Positions 559 to 17,262 of a stretch of DNA of 64,000 bases are shown piece after piece. Location: assembly GCF_000027125.1 (NCBI RefSeq), contig NC_017626.1. One strand, written 5' to 3'. The notes under the pieces were generated by a model, which ran no database searches, was not told the DNA's origin, and saw nothing but the letters and a program-made list of their open reading frames with translations. This DNA is from Escherichia coli 042 (GTDB taxonomy: Bacteria > Pseudomonadota > Gammaproteobacteria > Enterobacterales > Enterobacteriaceae). A program made the translations under genes and the position numbers. Each line of letters starts with the position of its first letter. Position 1 is the first letter of the stretch.

Positions 559-1878
559 TTAACTGCCCCAACGACTTTGCAGATAGCTGACCGCTTGTTG
601 AGTCTGTGGCTTATTCAGATAGTCCTCACGGAACAAGATTGTGCCGCTAATTTCTGGCACGGCATCGTTAAGATCGAGCTGCTTTTTCAGTTCCGGTACG
701 CCGCCGTTAATCATCCAGTCTGGCTCTATTTTTGAAGGTTCACCCACTTTATAGAAGGCGATACCGATATACAGGCGGGTCCTGGTCGGTTTAACGACAT
801 CCGCCCACCATTTTGCCAAAACGTCATAACGTGCGGCACTCCGTGAGAACGGCCAGTAAATTTGGGGAGCAATGTAATCCAGCAATCCTTGTTCCACCCA
901 TCGACGGGTGTCAGCGTAGGATTCGTCATAGGCTGCCGCGCCTCGGGTATCGGAACCGAGCGGATCGTGTGATCGGTTACGCCACACGCCTGCCGGGCTA
1001 ACGCCAAATTCGACTTCCGGCTTAATGCTTTTAATGGTGTGCGATACCTTCGCAATTAACTGCTGAGTATTGTTGCGCCGCCAGTCTGCTTTTGACGCAA
1101 ATGCGCCTCCGTATTTGCGGTACGTTTCGTTATCATTTAGCCGTGAACCCGGTGACTCAGTATAGAAATAGTCGTCAAACTGCACGCCATCTACCGGATA
1201 GCGGGAAACCACTTCCGCGACTATTGATGTGATCCAGTCCTGAACTTCAGGGATGCCCGGGTCGAGGACAAAGCGATCGCCGGACGTTCTGATCCAGTCG
1301 CGGTGTTGCACATAGACGCTCGCTGGTTGTTGAGCCAGAGTGCTATTCAGTTCCCTGATAGTACCGGGCTTCGTATTAACCGATACGCGATAGGGGTTAA
1401 ACCATGCGTGTACTTTCATCCCACGCTTGTGGGCTTCGTCGAGCATGAATTGCAGCGGATCGTAACCTGGATTTTCACCAATCTTTCCGGTCATAAGATC
1501 GGACCACGGCAAAATTTTTGATGGCCACAGGGCGGTACCGTCCGGCTTGACCTGGAAAAAGACCGTGTTTATGCCGAGACGTTGCAGATGATCCAGTTTG
1601 TCGATCATCGCCTGTTGTTGTACACGGGCCCGGCTGGTGGGGTTACTAATGTTAACCGAGGAAACCGGTGGCCAGTCGAGGCGAGACACCGTGGCCAGCC
1701 AGATGCCACGCATCGGTTGTGACGATTGTTGCGTCGTGGCTGGTGGCTTTGAACCCGCTGGTGGTGTCACCATGGACTCTGGAGGCGTGTTTTTACAACT
1801 ACACAGTAAAAGTGCCAGTGCAACCAGTATCGCTGGTCTTCTAATCGCTAATTTCTCGTTTCGGGAGCAGATATCCAT
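559..1878 (-). CDS. yddW: YddW/DigH lipoprotein, glycoside-hydrolase-like
   Basis: 439-aa ORF with lipoprotein-type signal (LLLCSC); position between dosC and gadC as in K-12. Confidence 0.85.
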   Translation of the reverse strand: MDICSRNEKLAIRRPAILVALALLLCSCKNTPPESMVTPPAGSKPPATTQQSSQPMRGIWLATVSRLDWPPVSSVNISNPTSRARVQQQAMIDKLDHLQRLGINTVFFQVKPDGTALWPSKILPWSDLMTGKIGENPGYDPLQFMLDEAHKRGMKVHAWFNPYRVSVNTKPGTIRELNSTLAQQPASVYVQHRDWIRTSGDRFVLDPGIPEVQDWITSIVAEVVSRYPVDGVQFDDYFYTESPGSRLNDNETYRKYGGAFASKADWRRNNTQQLIAKVSHTIKSIKPEVEFGVSPAGVWRNRSHDPLGSDTRGAAAYDESYADTRRWVEQGLLDYIAPQIYWPFSRSAARYDVLAKWWADVVKPTRTRLYIGIAFYKVGEPSKIEPDWMINGGVPELKKQLDLNDAVPEISGTILFREDYLNKPQTQQAVSYLQSRWGS

Positions 1879-1952
1879 ATGTGCTGGTTTCCGGTAAACA
1901 GATGTGCGCTCATTCTCGTACTTATCCCGGTTAAGTCAATACGACAGCAAGC

Positions 1953-1985
1953 ACGAAAAAGGGAGCGATGAATTATCGCTCCCTT
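1953..1985 (-). terminator. Intrinsic terminator downstream of gadC
   Basis: Perfect hairpin agggagcgat-gaatt-atcgctccct (1960..1984) followed on the minus strand by a T-run (A-run 1956..1960 on +); 25 to 50 nt after the gadC stop. Confidence 0.7.
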
Positions 1986-2008
1986 ATCTTATAACCATTC
2001 AGACATGG

Positions 2009-3544
2009 TTAGTGTTTCTTGTCATTCATCACAATATAGTGTGGTGAACGTGCACGCGGGTGCAGGAAGAAGTGACCTTTTGGTGCGTTCTGACTGTTGA
2101 TTGGCTCCAGAGTGACGCCGGTATTCCCTTTGCCTTTACGATCATGAACAGCATAGAGAATAAAGGGCAGGGCAAGTACCACCAGGAAACTAACGACCAG
2201 TAATTCAACATACATATCGGTAGAGTCACCCTGGATGTTATCCGGCGGCAGGAAGGAAACAATAAACGCCATAATTGAAGTCAGCAGACCGACAACAGCC
2301 ACGACCAGTTTCACCCCTTTACCACCAGGGATATTAAATGTGCGTTTTAAGTCAGGATGTTTAAGAACCAACACAATGTAGCCAATAAACAGCATGAAAT
2401 AAGCACACAGATAAATCACCACCGTCAGCGCCAGTGCGATCAGGAAGGACATGTTGTTACCGCCACCGGTATTGGTGAGGATGATCAACGCGATAGAAGT
2501 AATCACCAGCTGCGAAATGACCAGCGTTACCGGTACGCCATTTTTGTTCATTTTAGCGAATGCTGCTGGCAGCAGGTTTTTCTGCGCTGTGACATACATC
2601 CCGCGAGAAGGACCAACAATCCAGGAGGCGATTTCCGCCAGAACACCCAGCAACAGCAGTGCGGAGATCACGCGAACCGTCCACTCAATTTCCGGTGCCA
2701 CATGGGACATCAGAACGGTAAAGGTTTGCATTACACCTGCGGAGAGGTTGATTTCATTACCCGGAATGACCATCGCAATAGACAAACCGCCAACAGAGCT
2801 TAAGCAGATTGCCGCCACCATCAGCAGTAACATAGCCAGTGGATAGTCGCGCCCTGGATTGCTCATTTCATTGACGTGGGTTGCGGAAGCTTCAACGCCC
2901 ATATAACTCAAAATGAAGGCAACAAATACAACCAGGGTGCCCACTTTAGAGAAGTCAGGGAAGAAGGTCTTCGAATCCATTTCGATAGCAACGGGGGCAC
3001 CGGAGTGCAGATAAATAGCCGCTAATGCGATCAAAATAAATGCAGGTAACAGGATACCGGCGAAGAAGCCAACTTTAGCAATTCGCGCCGTGTATTTCGT
3101 GCCACCAAACTGCGTTAATGCCAGCGCCCAAAGAATGATGAGTGCTGCAATAGTTTTGGTAATGGGGTCTTCATTCAGCGCTGGCCATTTCAGGATGTAG
3201 GAGAGTGCCCCTAACACGAAATAGAGCATCGGAATAAAACCAATGGCGATTTGCAGATAGCCAAATGAGATCGCTGCAAATCCCCACCTCGGCCCCAGAG
3301 TATTTGATACCCAGGCGAAGACACCACCTTCTTCCCAGCCGTCGACGGTGGCCATTTCCGCAGCACAAAGTCCCACGGGAATAAACCATAAAATCCCGCC
3401 TAATAGCAGGAAGAAGACTAATGAAAAGCCCGATGTTGCGAAGGTAGGGTATTCATAAACAGCCATTACCATCGATGCCGTTATGGCAAAGAATCCGAGT
3501 AATGTGAGCTGCTTAGCTTTACCTGTCTGTACTGATGTAGCCAT
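2009..3544 (-). CDS. gadC: Glutamate:GABA antiporter GadC
   Basis: 511-aa polytopic membrane ORF directly downstream of gadB; length and sequence match GadC. Confidence 0.93.
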
Positions 3545-3653
3545 ATTATCCCCCTAAAACGGTATTCCTGTCGGAACCGCACCTGTTTTGTTCTGAAGCG
3601 TATTCAGAACAATATTTTCCGTTGCTAATGCCAGTGAACAGACTTTGGAAATT

Positions 3654-3679
3654 GTCCCGAAACGGGTTCGTTTCGGGAC
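3654..3679 (-). other. Intercistronic stem-loop between gadB and gadC
   Basis: Perfect 10-bp inverted repeat gtcccgaaac / gtttcgggac with a 6-nt loop; no U-run follows on the coding strand, so not a canonical terminator. Confidence 0.45.
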
Positions 3680-3699
3680 ACCGTTACCGTTAAACGTTA

Positions 3700-5100
3700 T
3701 CAGGTATGTTTAAAGCTGTTCTGCTGGGCAATACCCTGCAGTTTCGGGTGGTCGCTGAGATATTTCAGGGAGGCTTTGTAGTCTTCCAGCAACAGTTCAG
3801 CAAAGTCCATTTCGAAGCCGCGACGACACATAATGCGCATCACCACGATGTCGGTGGCTTCACCGCCAAGAGTGAAGGCCGGAACCTGCCAGCCGCGCAG
3901 ACGCAGACGTTCAGAGAGGTCGTACAGGGTGTATCCCGGATCTTCACCATCTTTCAGTTTGAAGCAAACCGCCGGGATGCCTTCGTCCGGGCGACCGGTA
4001 CAGATGAACTCATACGGCCCCAGTTTGGCGATTTCATCCGCCAGATAAGCGGCAACCTGGTAAGAGGCGTTCTGTACTTTGGTATAGCCTTCACGACCGA
4101 GGCGCAGGAATTCATAGTACTGTGCAATTACCTGACCCGCCGGGCGGGAGAAGTTGATGGCGAAAGTCCCAATCTGACCACCGAGGTAGTCAACGTTGAA
4201 CACCAGTTCCTGCGGCAGCGCTTCTTCATCACGCCAGATAACCCAGCCGCAGCCCAGCGGAGCCAGACCGAATTTATGGCCTGAAGCACTGATCGATTTC
4301 ACACGCGGCAGGCGGAAGTCCCAGACGATATCCGGGGCGACGAACGGTGCCAGGAAGCCACCGCTGGCGGCGTCGATGTGCATGTCGATGTCGATACCGG
4401 TGTCGGCCTGGAATTTATCCAGCGCATCGTGCAGCGGTTGCGGGAACTCATAGTTACCGGTGTAGGTCACGCCGAAAGTCGGCACCACGCCGATGGTGTT
4501 TTCGTCGCAGGCTTCAATCATGCGTTTCGGGTCCATAAACAACTGACCGGGGCGCATAGGGATCTCACGCAGCTCCACATCCCAGTAGCGGGCGAATTTA
4601 TGCCAGCAGATTTGCACCGGACCGCACACCAGGTTTGGTTTATCCGTTGGTTTGCCTGCAGCTTCCATACGCTTGCGCCAACGCCATTTCATCGCCATCC
4701 CGCCGAGCATACAGGCCTCGGAAGAACCAATGGTGTTGGTGCCAACGGCCTGACCATTTTTCGGCGCAGGCGCATGCCACAGATCGGCAACCATGTTTAC
4801 GCAACGCAGGTCGATGGCTGCAGATTGCGGATATTCTTCTTTGTCGATCCAGTTTTTGTTAATGGATAAATCCATCAACTTGTGGACATTTTCGTCGTCC
4901 CAGGTCTGGCAGAAAGTGGCCAGGTTCTGACGAGCGTTGCCATCAAGATATAATTCGTCATTGATAATCTGAAATGCGACATCGTCGCGCATTTCGTGCA
5001 GCGGAAAACGTTTTGATTCTGCGATAGTGGAAATAGACTTCGCACCAAAACGTGAATCGAGTAGTTCCGACCTTAAATCCGTTACTAGCTTCTTATCCAT
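3700..5100 (-). CDS. gadB: Glutamate decarboxylase beta (PLP-dependent)
   Basis: ORF translation from [24 protein letters not shown] onward matches GadB (466 aa). True ATG is at 5098..5100; the track ORF begins 23 codons upstream. Confidence 0.93.
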
Positions 5101-5179
5101 TTTAAACTCCTTAAAATGATTGGATCGCATTAAAAAAGTAGGATTTATCGATAAAGTAAGCAAGTGCAAAGGACTCGTG

Positions 5180-5199
5180 TTTAAATAACAAAATCCTAA
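5180..5199 (-). promoter_or_regulatory. gad box (GadE/GadX binding element) of the gadBC promoter
   Basis: + strand tttaaataacaaaatcctaa is the exact reverse complement of the 20-bp gad box consensus TTAGGATTTTGTTATTTAAA; it lies 80 to 99 bp upstream of the gadB ATG. Confidence 0.85.
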
Positions 5200-5461
5200 T
5201 GTTATTTATCGTGAGATATTATGCGAATAATGTTTTTTCATTGAAAATCAATACATTATTGAATTATTGGGTGGTAGCAAGGTGTTTTGTGTTGTTATTT
5301 TTATGCACTTTCTACGCCTCCTGAATTATCACGTAAAAATCAGACCTTAAAATATCACTATTAGTACTTGGTTATTATTTTGAACGCATTTATAAAATTA
5401 TTACATAAAAATAGCGAATATTGATAAAATCCCCGCCAACGATGTGTTGACGGGGCTGTTA

Positions 5462-8257
5462 TTATTTTGGCAATAATACTCCGGTATAGGTATTCACCGG
5501 ATGAGAAAGATATTGTTTAACGGCAGTGTTAACATTCTCTACCGTCATTTGTTTCAATAATTGCTCCTGCTCAGTCCATGCTGCAGGATCGTCATATTGA
5601 ATAAGACTATTTACAATGGTGTTCGCTAATTGTTGAACGCTACGCTGTTGGATATCGAGGCTGCGCTGAACGTTTTGCTGGTATTCGTTCAGTTCTTGCT
5701 CACTGATCCCTTTAGCCAGACGCTTAACCATCACTTCATTCGCTAACGTTAACAGTTCATCATGTCGTTCCGGTTGACAAGTAAAAGCCAGCAAATGACT
5801 GATATCTTTGGCCTGAGGATCAACCGAGAGGCGAGAAGAAACGCTGTATGCCCCAGAGGCCTGTTCACGAATATTAACGCGTAGATCTTTTGCCAGTGCG
5901 ACGTTAAAAGCATCGAGCGCCATACGCGTCTCCAGATTAACCGGTGTCCGGGAATCATAACGCTTCCACTGTGAAACCTGTGCCACAGGTTCATTTTGTT
6001 CTTTTACAGTAACCGATGCGTTGTCCGTCGCGCGAGTTAATGGTTTACCTGCGGCTAATGGCGAATCAGAGTGTTTGATTGATCCTAAGTAAAGCGTAAT
6101 TAACGGCAGGAGTTTGTCTTCTGCGACATTACCGACAATGACAAACGTGATATCCGCTGGAGATGAAAACAACTGGCGATCGGCAGCCAGCGCATCTGCG
6201 GCAGTAAACTGTGCAATCTGATTTTCTTGCAGTAATTTCGTGCGGTCATCAGCATAGCGCGTCTCATACATCTGCTGGGCGAATTTCTCCGCTGGACGCT
6301 GGTCGAGCGTTTTCAACGCCTGAATTTGAGCATTTTGTAGCGATGCCCAAATATTATCGTTAATCGTGCTGTGGGTGATTCGCTGGTTAATCAACTGGAA
6401 ACCAGGTTCAGGGTTATTAGTCCGCGCGCTAACAGAGAGCAATGTATTCATGCCACTGACTTTACTGCTCAAGGTTACCGAGTTTTCCGCACTCCAGCGT
6501 TTCAGGCTGGAAGAGGAGAGTTCACCAACGCCGCTTCCGCTTACTGCTTTATTTGCCAGCGCGATAAGTGATTTTTGCTGCGCAGGGAAACTTAAATCGC
6601 CTTTATAAGATACGGCAGTAATTTGTAGCTTTTGCTCTTCACCCGCGGATTTTGCCAGAATAACCCTGGCACCATTGGAAAGTGTTAATGATGTCAGATT
6701 CTCAGCCAGCGTTTCTTTGCTGCTAATTTCCGCCTGTGGGTCAGCGTCTACTGTTAACGATAAATTTCTGCCTGGGAAGATGTAAGCCGCCAGCTTTTTG
6801 TTGGCGTACTCTTTTTCCAGCGCCAGGATAGCCGCAGGAGACAATGCTTTTTTGGCAGCAACCTCATTGTTTACCATTTGCTCCCAAAATGCATCCTGGT
6901 TCTTTCTTAACTGCTGCCATTTTTCCGCCAGACTTTGCACGGTAATTTGCTGCCACAGACGTTTCGAAAGTTGATATGTCTCTTCCGGCGACAAGAACGG
7001 CGTATTATTTAATGAGCTGGATGCCAGGCGACTGGTCAGCATACGTAAATCACGTTCAGCTTGCTGATCAACCGCATTTTTCAGCCAGGTGAGGCGGGTA
7101 GATTTGACATCATCGAGTTCTTCAGCAGAAAAACCATGCTGATCAATAGTTGCCAACTCTGCCATTAATGCATTCGCAGCATCCTGCATATTATCGTCTC
7201 GTGCATTTACACGGAAAAACAGCGACTGATAATCGGGTGCAATTTTAACGCTGCGCGCAGTGCCGCCAGAAATAGTCTTCAACTCGCCCGACTGTATGCG
7301 TTCCTGCAGACGCTGATTGAACAGCTGAACCAACATGCTCCATTCAGCTTGTTCGATAAAGCTTTGCTCATCGCTCACTTGCACCATTGGCAGGCGATAA
7401 TAGAGTGCGATGCCGTTCACCCGGTTTTCTTTATCATTAATGATATTAAAGCGCAGGTGGTTTTCGGCTTTTGTCGGCCAGACGCGATTTTCAGCTGCTT
7501 TGTTAGCCGGAAGCTTACTTAAATTATCCTTAATCAGCGCCAGCGCTTCTTTACTGTCGATATCGCCGACCACGATAAAGGTCATATTATTTGGTTGATA
7601 CCAGCGTTGATAAAATTGGCGCAATTGTGCCGGTGTGACCGTAGCGACAGTATCCATCACGCCGATAGGTTCACGGTCTAAATTACGGGTATTTGCCAGC
7701 AGGAAAGGGCGGCGCGCCTGAGAGGTGCGCCATTTCGCATCCTGATGGGCACGCCATTCCTCAGTAATTACGCCGCGTTCAGCGTCTACTTCGAGTTTTT
7801 CAAAGCTTGCGGCATTACTCCATTCACTAAAGATTGCCATCACTTGTTGCAGATTTTGTTTCTGCGTAGTCGGCAAACTCACCTGATACACCGTTTCGTC
7901 ATAGCTGGTATAGGCATTAACATCGCGACCAAAACGCAGGCCCATTGACTCAAATGTTTCGATGACTTTATTACCCGGCCATGTTTTTGTGCCGTTAAAC
8001 ATCATATGTTCTACAAAATGAGCCACGCCGCGCTCATTGTCCTCTTCCTGCAATGAACCGGTATGAATTTGCAGCCATAAATTTACCTGATCCTTTGGTT
8101 GAGCATGCGGATAAATCATATATCGCAAGCCATTGTCCAGTTGCCCGGTAATTAACTTTTCATCCTGCGGTAAGGCGGCGGCAATCAGTCGCCCGGGGAG
8201 CAACAGAGTTGCCACTAACGTCAGTAAGAAACAGAGGTTTCTCATAATTATCTCCAT
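5462..8257 (-). CDS. pqqL: M16-family zinc metallopeptidase PqqL
   Basis: HxxEH zinc motif (HFVEH) near the N-terminus; ~931 aa; start chosen at MEIIMRNLCF (track ORF begins 5 codons earlier). Confidence 0.88.
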   Translation of the reverse strand: MEIIMRNLCFLLTLVATLLLPGRLIAAALPQDEKLITGQLDNGLRYMIYPHAQPKDQVNLWLQIHTGSLQEEDNERGVAHFVEHMMFNGTKTWPGNKVIETFESMGLRFGRDVNAYTSYDETVYQVSLPTTQKQNLQQVMAIFSEWSNAASFEKLEVDAERGVITEEWRAHQDAKWRTSQARRPFLLANTRNLDREPIGVMDTVATVTPAQLRQFYQRWYQPNNMTFIVVGDIDSKEALALIKDNLSKLPANKAAENRVWPTKAENHLRFNIINDKENRVNGIALYYRLPMVQVSDEQSFIEQAEWSMLVQLFNQRLQERIQSGELKTISGGTARSVKIAPDYQSLFFRVNARDDNMQDAANALMAELATIDQHGFSAEELDDVKSTRLTWLKNAVDQQAERDLRMLTSRLASSSLNNTPFLSPEETYQLSKRLWQQITVQSLAEKWQQLRKNQDAFWEQMVNNEVAAKKALSPAAILALEKEYANKKLAAYIFPGRNLSLTVDADPQAEISSKETLAENLTSLTLSNGARVILAKSAGEEQKLQITAVSYKGDLSFPAQQKSLIALANKAVSGSGVGELSSSSLKRWSAENSVTLSSKVSGMNTLLSVSARTNNPEPGFQLINQRITHSTINDNIWASLQNAQIQALKTLDQRPAEKFAQQMYETRYADDRTKLLQENQIAQFTAADALAADRQLFSSPADITFVIVGNVAEDKLLPLITLYLGSIKHSDSPLAAGKPLTRATDNASVTVKEQNEPVAQVSQWKRYDSRTPVNLETRMALDAFNVALAKDLRVNIREQASGAYSVSSRLSVDPQAKDISHLLAFTCQPERHDELLTLANEVMVKRLAKGISEQELNEYQQNVQRSLDIQQRSVQQLANTIVNSLIQYDDPAAWTEQEQLLKQMTVENVNTAVKQYLSHPVNTYTGVLLPK

Positions 8258-8301: not shown

Positions 8302-10674
8302 TTAAAATTTCATGCTGACATCAAGCCAGAAAGTACGGCCACTGGCGTAGGTCGCCACACCGGTATTCGTTGTATCAACCGCGGTTTTGCTATCCAGTAC
8401 ATTGAGAATATCGGCACTGATCGTCAGGTTTTGTTGTTTCAGAAATTGTGGCGTCCAGGACAAGCGGGTGTCCCAGGTCAGGCTGCTATCCAGTTTTTCG
8501 TCAACATACTGCTTGTAATCTGAATATTCGCTGATGTATTGCGCATTCGTCTTACCCAGGATAATGCGAGCTTTACGCGCTTCTTGCCAGGTCAGCGTAT
8601 TCGCCCACACCAACCCGCTCGGTTGATGCGTGAAATCCATGTTTAAGGAGATCTTTAGTGGATTATTAAAATCCGCCACTGGAACGCTATCGTAAGAGAC
8701 CAGATTACCGTTATAAACCACCCGGTTATCACCGGTATTGCTCTCCTCATAACCATTGTTTAACGACAAGTTGCCCTTGCTCTTGATATAGCTAAAGACA
8801 ATTTGCGGGTTAATATCTACCTGGCTGATATGCAGGGGTTCGGCCAGTTCAAAACTGAGGTTGAACGAATGCGTTTTGGTTTTGCCGTCGTTGTTATATT
8901 CAGTAATGGTGGTTTTAGTCGCGCTGTCGGTACGACTGCTTTTGCTGATTTGATCATGCGCTTCACGGTAAACATAGTTTGCGCGCGCAATAACGTTCTT
9001 ACCGATTTTTTGCTGCAATCCCATTGCCAGTTCATCGTTATAAGGCGTTTTCAAATCCTGATAACGCGTCAGGGTTTTATTGCCTGATACCGATTCCGTC
9101 CAGCTATTGCGGATATCACGTAATCCCATATCAAGAATATTCCCGCCATAGTAACGGTTATAACCGGCGGTAATCATTGAGGTTTGATCAGCAAAAATAT
9201 CCCATTCCGTCATAAAGCGCGGGGAGATATTGTGGTTTGACAGATAGTTGTCATAGTCATACCGCACGCCGGGCATTAATGACACATTACGCCAGCTAAT
9301 ACGATCCGCCATATACAGCGTGTAGTTGTCAATTCCCAGGCTGCCTTTACCTTTATGGTAAATGGTATGGTTAGTTTTCTTTCCGGCAGCATTAATCACA
9401 TAGGATTCAGACTGGTTATGGCGTTCAGTCCATGCATCGGAATAGATGTATTCCGCGCCGAAGTAGGGTTGATGCGAAACATTACCCACGGTGAATTTTT
9501 GCCAGTCCAGGCGTGTTTTGAAGGTGTAATTATCTACAGCCTGGGAAATGTGTCCTAATCCGCCACGGGTGCAACGCCCTGTAATATCACCATATGTACA
9601 TGAAAGTTCGGTGTACCAGATGTCATGATCGTGACGGGTATAATCACTAATATGATCCCAACCAACGGTGGTACGTAGTTTGGCCCATGCGAGCTGCGTA
9701 TCCATATCCCATGCCAGACCGTAGGATTTATTACCCATTTCGCGATCAGACTGCGGGAAGGTGCTGGTATTATAATCACGACTGGAGCCGGTATATTTTA
9801 ATGTTAAATCGTGGGTAAAGCGGTCGCTGGCAAACCAGGTAAATTTGCTCACTGCGGTATCGATAACGTTTTTATACTGTGCCCGACCGGCGACAATGCC
9901 GTCATTCGAAACATAATCCGCGCGGGTGATATCAGACTGGCGGCGCGATAAACCGGCGGTAACGCCGAAGTTATCAGCGAGTTCCTGATTAAACGCCAAA
10001 GTATAAAAGTTCTTTTTAAAATCTGGAGAGTAATAAGTACTTCCTGAAGAACCTTGATTAAATGCGCTCTTGTTATTCTCATCGATATGCGATGTTAACC
10101 AGTCCGAACGCGTAGTGCGATAACCCAGTTCCACGCTGCTATCATCAGCATTGAAGCGTTTGATCTTTGCATCAATTACCCCGCCATTGAAGCGACCAAA
10201 TTCAACCGGCACAAAACTGTCATAAAGCGTCACATTGTCCAGTAAGCTGACATCTAGATAATACCCCTGTGACATCCCGCTAATATTGGTTGCACTACTG
10301 GCATCGGACTCATTCGCTGGGTTCAGGTTATTAGTTGCACTAATACCATCAATCAAATAGGCATTCTGGTAGGGCGACGCACCGTGAATAGAGATTTTCT
10401 CCGGGCGAATATCTCCCTGGTTCAACGAGGTACTTTGCGTTGAATCCATGCGCACAGCAGGGTTGGTTCTCAGCAGATCGCTGATATTGCCATTCCCGGT
10501 CGGTAAACGCTCGATGCTTTCACTGGTGTAATGCGTATTGCCGTTTACGGGTACAGGGACAGGAGCATAGACCGTCATCTCTTCAAAAACATGCATGTAC
10601 ATGTTTTTGTCATCGACGGCCTGCGCCACATCAGCGCCACATAAAATGACGCCAGGAATAAGAACTCGCTTCAT
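8302..10674 (-). CDS. yddB: TonB-dependent outer-membrane receptor YddB
   Basis: 790-aa ORF with signal peptide and C-terminal aromatic residue (…LDVSMKF); sits between pqqL and yddA. Confidence 0.88.
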   Translation of the reverse strand: MKRVLIPGVILCGADVAQAVDDKNMYMHVFEEMTVYAPVPVPVNGNTHYTSESIERLPTGNGNISDLLRTNPAVRMDSTQSTSLNQGDIRPEKISIHGASPYQNAYLIDGISATNNLNPANESDASSATNISGMSQGYYLDVSLLDNVTLYDSFVPVEFGRFNGGVIDAKIKRFNADDSSVELGYRTTRSDWLTSHIDENNKSAFNQGSSGSTYYSPDFKKNFYTLAFNQELADNFGVTAGLSRRQSDITRADYVSNDGIVAGRAQYKNVIDTAVSKFTWFASDRFTHDLTLKYTGSSRDYNTSTFPQSDREMGNKSYGLAWDMDTQLAWAKLRTTVGWDHISDYTRHDHDIWYTELSCTYGDITGRCTRGGLGHISQAVDNYTFKTRLDWQKFTVGNVSHQPYFGAEYIYSDAWTERHNQSESYVINAAGKKTNHTIYHKGKGSLGIDNYTLYMADRISWRNVSLMPGVRYDYDNYLSNHNISPRFMTEWDIFADQTSMITAGYNRYYGGNILDMGLRDIRNSWTESVSGNKTLTRYQDLKTPYNDELAMGLQQKIGKNVIARANYVYREAHDQISKSSRTDSATKTTITEYNNDGKTKTHSFNLSFELAEPLHISQVDINPQIVFSYIKSKGNLSLNNGYEESNTGDNRVVYNGNLVSYDSVPVADFNNPLKISLNMDFTHQPSGLVWANTLTWQEARKARIILGKTNAQYISEYSDYKQYVDEKLDSSLTWDTRLSWTPQFLKQQNLTISADILNVLDSKTAVDTTNTGVATYASGRTFWLDVSMKF

Positions 10675-17144: not shown

Positions 17145-17262
17145 GAGGTATATATCTTATAACGAGCAGTTTAATTTAGCACATGTGAGTAAATTGCGCG
17201 ACAATGGTCAATGAGGAATTCTTCTGCTGTGCGGATGACAGCAGAAGAAATGAGGAGGCGAA

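Follow-up and report, generated by a model that had tools for sequence, protein, structure and literature searches.

The hairpins of the puf operon of Rhodobacter capsulatus are intercistronic stabilisers that set differential expression, and REP elements located between malE and malF are said, after work by Newbury et al. in 1987, to be intercistronic stabilisers underlying differential expression within their operon. In E. coli, stable stem-loops without U-tracts are found at steady-state 3′ ends, where they shield transcripts from PNPase and RNase II; a gain or loss of U can move such elements between an intrinsic and a non-intrinsic mode (Dar & Sorek 2018, NAR; PMC6061677). Processing of the gadX–gadW mRNA directed by GadY requires an antisense small RNA and the action of RNase III on the intermolecular duplex (PMC3937726).

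The hairpin described here, located between gadB and gadC, resembles the Dar and Sorek class in that it is stable, has a U-poor tail and has a precise in vivo 3′ end immediately downstream; it differs from that class in that it does not end a transcription unit but has a translated cistron on either side, and the mild enrichment of C over G downstream of their elements is absent. As with the malE–malF REP and puf elements, it is positioned just after a highly expressed upstream cistron which, by analogy, it would shield from 3′ exonucleases whilst the downstream segment decays, although, unlike the malE–malF REP elements, it is single-copy and lacks the REP consensus. Like canonical or leaky intrinsic terminators it contains G-C pairs and has a 3′ end a few nucleotides downstream, but it is without the 7–8 nt U-tract of canonical intrinsic terminators, and its U residues are not conserved. 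The gadB hairpin would also uncouple two co-transcribed gad genes post-transcriptionally, as does GadY for gadX–gadW, which belong to the same acid-resistance regulon; however, gadBC has an intramolecular 12-bp hairpin only, and no antisense RNA is known there. A literature search for a described gadB–gadC hairpin, Northern sizes, mRNA half-lives, protein ratios or small-RNA links returned nothing usable, and the gadB hairpin is a previously undiscussed member of a well-known kind of operon-tuning element. E. coli and Shigella have GadB and GadC as their main system of resistance to extreme acid, and the pair is widely engineered for the production of GABA.

Architecture of the gadB–gadC spacer

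The features of the gadBC operon and its spacer, in window coordinates (the window being the whole 64-kb stretch of DNA analysed) and in the order in which they are transcribed, are as follows.

3700–5100, minus strand: gadB coding sequence, 466 aa, with a UGA stop followed by an in-frame UAA (3697–3699)
3653–3680, minus strand: intercistronic hairpin, with 5′ arm 3680–3669, loop 3668–3665 (AACC) and 3′ arm 3664–3653
3647–3652, minus strand: tail 3′ of the stem, AUUUCC, with three U only, not conserved among Escherichia lineages
3649 (MG1655 1570594), minus strand: mapped RNA 3′ end, ...GGGACAAUUU-3′ (Term-seq, Adams et al. 2021)
3613–3646, minus strand: near-invariant spacer block downstream of the hairpin, with 31 of 34 columns invariant in seven Escherichia lineages
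3588–3612, minus strand: second hairpin, AU-rich, perfect 10 bp, UUGUUCUGAA-UACGC-UUCAGAACAA, 43 nt upstream of the gadC start
2009–3544, minus strand: gadC coding sequence, 511 aa; 105 nt separate the mapped 3′ end from its own, downstream Shine-Dalgarno, UAGGGGGAUAAUAUG
1961–1983, minus strand: canonical gadC intrinsic terminator at the operon end, GGGAGCG...CGCUCCC followed by UUUUU, used as an internal comparison

The two genes were identified through 100% megablast matches to annotated E. coli genomes together with the annotation of MG1655 (NC_000913.3), whose coordinates are offset from those of the window by +1566945. Across window positions 1055–6555, which surround gadBC, 104 of 5,501 positions differ from MG1655, with no indels, so that the window derives from an E. 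coli other than K-12. The spacer separating gadB from gadC (155 nt; 3545–3699) is identical in sequence to that of K-12-like genomes.

A perfect 10-bp stem-loop had been noted at 3654–3679 in a preliminary description; it is real, and is a subset (with a 6-nt loop) of a 12-bp stem with a 4-nt loop at 3653–3680. The underlying inverted repeat has two 12-nt arms (3653–3664 and 3669–3680), which are 100% complementary and separated by a 4-nt gap. Read on the minus strand, as in the mRNA, its sequence is UGUCCCGAAACG-AACC-CGUUUCGGGACA, with AAUUUCCAAAG after it; the repeat begins 19 nt past the UGA-UAA stops of gadB, seven of its 12 pairs are G-C, and its folding energy is −19.9 kcal/mol. Among perfect stems with loops of 3–8 nt, the window holds only six distinct ones of 10 bp or more, compared with expectations from first-order Markov random sequences of 0.43 for stems of at least 10 bp and 0.02 for those of at least 12 bp; the gadB–gadC stem is beyond chance. 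The spacer as a whole is also unusually structured (fold z = −4.05 versus dinucleotide shuffles).

At an identity of at least 95%, 5,407 of 5,426 complete E. coli genomes contain the spacer, in a single copy each (median 1). No copy was found downstream of the paralogue gadA, and no repeat or RNA is annotated at the spacer in MG1655 (NC_000913.3). A REP/BIME or mobile element is ruled out, since the hairpin is single-copy and without REP consensus. Of the spacer copies in the E. coli collection, five are on records of plasmid type. A scan of positions 1500–6500 with the Rfam 15 covariance models, at E-values of up to 10, gave no match in the spacer; weak matches near the gadC terminator (DapZ and psbA 3′ UTR) fall far under the gathering scores and look like noise. 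A terminator for the opposite strand was considered and rejected: there is no T-run after the plus-strand stem, and the plus-strand scan called the second, AU-rich hairpin only.

Conservation of the hairpin within Escherichia

Scanning species-representative genomes with GadC identified 80 loci, in 63 of which gadB lies directly upstream of gadC. The comparison within Escherichia used seven lineages, comprising E. coli, E. albertii, E. whittamii and four cryptic clades. No other part of the spacer varies as much in sequence as the hairpin, in which only 13 of 30 columns are invariant across these lineages; nonetheless its pairing is kept, with standard pairs in 92.8% of cells, a value which falls to 29–51% in a control where the 3′ partners were slid by 1–3 columns. 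Both sides have changed in four of the 12 pairs, including U-A to C-G, and A-U to G-C twice in E. albertii, the hairpin of which is GCCCCGGGCCGACAUCUUGUCCCGGGGC. The same helix is predicted independently by RNAalifold. Stability across the seven lineages ranges from −13 to −20 kcal/mol, the lower limit being that of a lineage (L003) with a weakened stem. The observed count of covarying pairs, which comes from seven related sequences, was reached by 17 of 500 column shuffles. Wobble pairs in the hairpin are G·U in the sense orientation, which fits a role as RNA on the gadBC strand, and not as DNA or as an antisense RNA. As judged from these seven sequences, which are few and related, selection on the hairpin is on its structure and not on its sequence.

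Within E. coli, 1,814 of 5,406 genomes carry one or two changes in the 56-nt hairpin region. In each of seven variants sampled (7/7), the changes are confined to the loop (AACC to AAGC or CACC) or to the loop-closing pair.

Hairpins downstream of gadB in other genera

For genera other than Escherichia, the first 90 nt of each gadB–gadC spacer of at least 40 nt was examined with a fast stem scorer. A hairpin that beats at least 95% of 300 dinucleotide shuffles is present in 42 of these 59 spacers, and in 40 of them it beats at least 99%. The hairpins have a median start 18 nt past the gadB stop, with 12 pairs as the median stem length, but their sequences are unrelated to that of E. coli and fall into many families. 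One such family, shared by Providencia, Proteus hauseri and two Enterobacteriaceae, has compensatory changes at six or more stem positions (pairs tabulated with anchors). The preliminary description had proposed conservation across gadBC operons as a check, and the outcome is positive: whilst the seven Escherichia lineages keep the hairpin by way of compensatory changes, most other gadBC operons carry non-homologous hairpins at the same position.

The tails of these hairpins were compared by counting from the last G-C pair, since A-U pairs absorb U-tracts. At least five U occur in the 8 nt past the last G-C pair in 14% of gadB-proximal hairpins versus 57% of post-gadC hairpins (Mann–Whitney p = 5e-4). 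In a separate count, the tails in other genera are no richer in U than the spacer background (2.5 U observed versus 2.3 expected in 8 nt). A true run of 5–8 U follows the equivalent hairpin at three loci, those of Yersinia rohdei (L009), Serratia sp. H1w (L014) and Citrobacter sp. FP75 (L038). Depending on the lineage, therefore, the gadB–gadC junction appears to use either a canonical intrinsic terminator or a hairpin that has no U-tract, and the three U-tracts are consistent with the mode shifts noted by Dar and Sorek (PMC6061677). The gadB hairpins thereby illustrate how such elements gain or lose a U-tract as they drift. Taken together, the genera compared suggest that a hairpin forming a 3′ end after gadB is a common feature of gadBC design.

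A mapped RNA 3′ end adjacent to the hairpin

An RNA 3′ end on the minus strand at MG1655 position 1570594 is listed with 33,816.8 reads in the Term-seq data of Adams et al. 2021 (eLife, PMC7815308; Supplementary file 1, sheet M63 0.4), the sample being MG1655 in M63 glucose. The sequence flanking this end is ...GTCCCGAAACGAACCCGTTTCGGGACAATT[T]CCAAAGTCTG (PMC7815308). In window coordinates the end falls at 3649, which is the third U after the stem, 4 nt beyond the 12-bp helix and 51 nt past the gadB stop. In the same sample the end at the gadC terminator (MG1655 1568900; window 1955) has 70,553 reads (PMC7815308), Term-seq read counts being semi-quantitative only. The 3′-end mapping suggested as a check in the preliminary description thus returned a strong end beside the stem, contrary to its refuting condition of no transcript ends nearby.

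The label 'orphan' given to 1570594 in PMC7815308 arises because the 'primary' class of Adams et al. stops at 50 nt, and the end is missing from their 5′-UTR table since a stop codon is the feature nearest to it upstream. It was called in one of three conditions; both gadBC ends are absent in the two LB conditions, LB being also the medium of the bicyclomycin data of Adams et al. (PMC7815308). Since the end at the gadC terminator is likewise absent in LB, the absence concerns the whole operon and not the hairpin, and it probably reflects the level of expression. No gadB entry was found in the SMRT-Cappable-seq and TERMITe supplements.

Alternative explanations for the hairpin and the 3′ end

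The mapped end could arise through release of some RNA polymerases after gadB at a leaky intrinsic (Rho-independent) terminator made up of the hairpin and the short AUUU, in which case transcription of gadC would be attenuated directly. The stability of the hairpin and the position of the in vivo end, at the last U of AAUUU and 4–5 nt from the stem, would fit such a terminator, and a sizeable share of the 3′ ends of the operon lies here (33,817 reads versus 70,553 at the gadC terminator). The U-tracts following the equivalent hairpins in Yersinia rohdei, Serratia sp. and Citrobacter sp. further imply that termination at the gadB–gadC junction is used somewhere. The tail, however, is a poor match: AUUUCCAA has only three U in the 8 nt past the stem and no 7–8 nt U-tract, so that the absence of a U-run claimed in the preliminary description is correct in substance. 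The T-tail score is 1.50 (0.12–1.5 across lineages) versus 4.01 for the gadC terminator, which has a symmetric arrangement of A-tract, hairpin and U-tract (1959–1985, minus strand; AAGGGAGCG...CGCUCCCUU), and a rough discriminant of the d'Aubenton-Carafa type is −21 versus +19. A consensus terminator scan of the minus strand did not call the hairpin. Moreover, U has been lost whilst the stem has been kept, with AAACUCC in E. albertii and GCAUUCC, AAAUUCC or AAUUCC in other lineages, and the tails in other genera do not exceed background in their U content. The earlier argument that the hairpin is unlikely to be a terminator is therefore favoured, because the three U are not conserved and equivalent hairpins elsewhere are U-poor relative to post-gadC hairpins; we regard leaky termination as possible, but doubtful.

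It is improbable, in our view, that the 3′ end is a by-product and that the hairpin serves instead as a structural insulator or regulatory element for the translation or decay of gadC, for example by making the folding of the gadC ribosome-binding region independent of whether gadB is translated, or as a recognition site for a nuclease or protein. The strong folding of the spacer, its three further predicted helices, the near-invariant 34-nt block and the presence of two hairpins in the spacers of many other genera are in keeping with such a role. On the other hand, the freely varying loop argues against sequence-specific recognition of the hairpin, the 12-bp stem is shorter than typical RNase III substrates, and the hairpin lies 105 nt from the gadC start codon, with no pairing to the Shine-Dalgarno in any predicted fold. 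Least probable of all, and very unlikely, is that the repeat is a DNA-level palindrome (for example, the binding site of a dimeric protein) or a neutral leftover without a role in expression. Although it is a perfect inverted repeat in double-stranded DNA and matches no RNA family, its compensatory changes and sense-strand G·U pairs fit pairing in RNA rather than a fixed protein recognition sequence, an RNA 3′ end is mapped beside it, and in other genera its position is occupied by hairpins of unrelated sequence; a mobile or repeat origin is contradicted by its single copy.

Proposed role of the hairpin

On balance, and with modest confidence, we favour the reading that the hairpin acts within the gadBC mRNA, as an RNA element which defines and protects the 3′ end of a gadB-only transcript; blocking of exonucleases is preferred over leaky intrinsic termination, although the two mechanisms could act together. 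An mRNA processing or stability element was also the role put forward in the preliminary description, and it is supported by the conserved pairing and by the transcript end mapped beside the hairpin. The data show the structure itself, its evolutionary maintenance, the adjacent in vivo 3′ end, and the recurrence of hairpins without U-tracts at the corresponding position in other gadBC operons.

In the outlined mechanism, RNA polymerase would mostly pass through the hairpin. Some molecules would then lose their downstream part, either by endonucleolytic cleavage in the single-stranded, conserved part of the spacer or through Rho acting before translation of gadC is established, and the shortened RNAs would likely be trimmed in the 3′-to-5′ direction, with PNPase or RNase II as the candidate nucleases. 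Trimming would halt at the stable 12-bp stem, leaving ...GGGACAAUUU-3′. The gadB mRNA with its hairpin cap would outlive the gadC segment, which would decay or not be made, and the soluble decarboxylase would thereby be in excess over the membrane antiporter despite their one shared promoter. An effect of the hairpin on the GadB:GadC ratio is thus a predicted, downstream consequence of the proposed protection.

With regard to how the downstream part might be lost, the 108 nt following the hairpin contain 20 C and 25 G, and are neither C-rich nor G-poor; a Rho loading site is therefore not evident. RNase E has a preference for RN↓WUU. Direct cleavage by RNase E at the mapped end was rejected, as the junction UUU↓CCA does not fit this preference, which makes a trimmed or a terminated end more likely.

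If the hairpin does set the amount of decarboxylase per antiporter, it would explain how unequal amounts are made from one promoter, and would offer a simple handle on the GadB:GadC ratio, via the stability of the stem or the gain or removal of a U-tract. These findings do not overturn current understanding; added interest lies in the way a hairpin lacking a U-tract recurs after gadB in the majority of proteobacterial gadBC operons, and in the near-invariant block that adjoins the one described here.

The conserved block and other structured elements

The sequence of the 34-nt block (3613–3646) is AAGUCUGUUCACUGGCAUUAGCAAYGRAAAAUAUUG. Third-codon-position identity in gadB and gadC between E. 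coli and E. albertii is only 0.67–0.75, and the primary sequence of the block is therefore under strong constraint. The block may be a single-stranded region of nuclease entry or cleavage, in which its AU-rich motifs are possible RNase E sites; other candidate roles are as a binding site for a small RNA or protein, or as a weak promoter-like sequence (TTCACT-18-TATTGT). On the minus strand, RNAalifold also pairs the tail of the hairpin (UUCCR; 3646–3650) with a downstream YGGAA (3617–3621), and one of these pairs covaries from G-C to A-U, such that the region of the mapped 3′ end may itself be base-paired within the full-length gadBC mRNA.

The hairpin and the block could together form a regulated decoupling switch, in which a signal, for example pH or growth phase, would modulate cleavage, Rho loading or small-RNA pairing within the block; we give this extension a low probability. 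Were it correct, the balance of hairpin-capped gadB to full-length gadBC mRNA, and hence of decarboxylase to antiporter, would be tuned by condition, and a general need for such control would lie behind the hairpins without U-tracts that recur after gadB in most gadBC operons of proteobacteria.

The second hairpin of the spacer (3588–3612) has one compensatory change (U-A to C-G), with C·A mismatches or a deletion in four lineages. Escherichia GadB is 56–60% identical to the GadB proteins of loci L008–L073, the adjoining GadC proteins of which are 70–80% identical to E. coli GadC; GadB is thus the more diverged of the two, which hints at different histories for the two genes. Elsewhere in the window, perfect stems of 12, 11 and 10 bp with loops of 6–8 nt are located at 17219–17249, 60630–60659 and 10584–10609, respectively, and stand out because the random expectation is approximately 0.4 per window.
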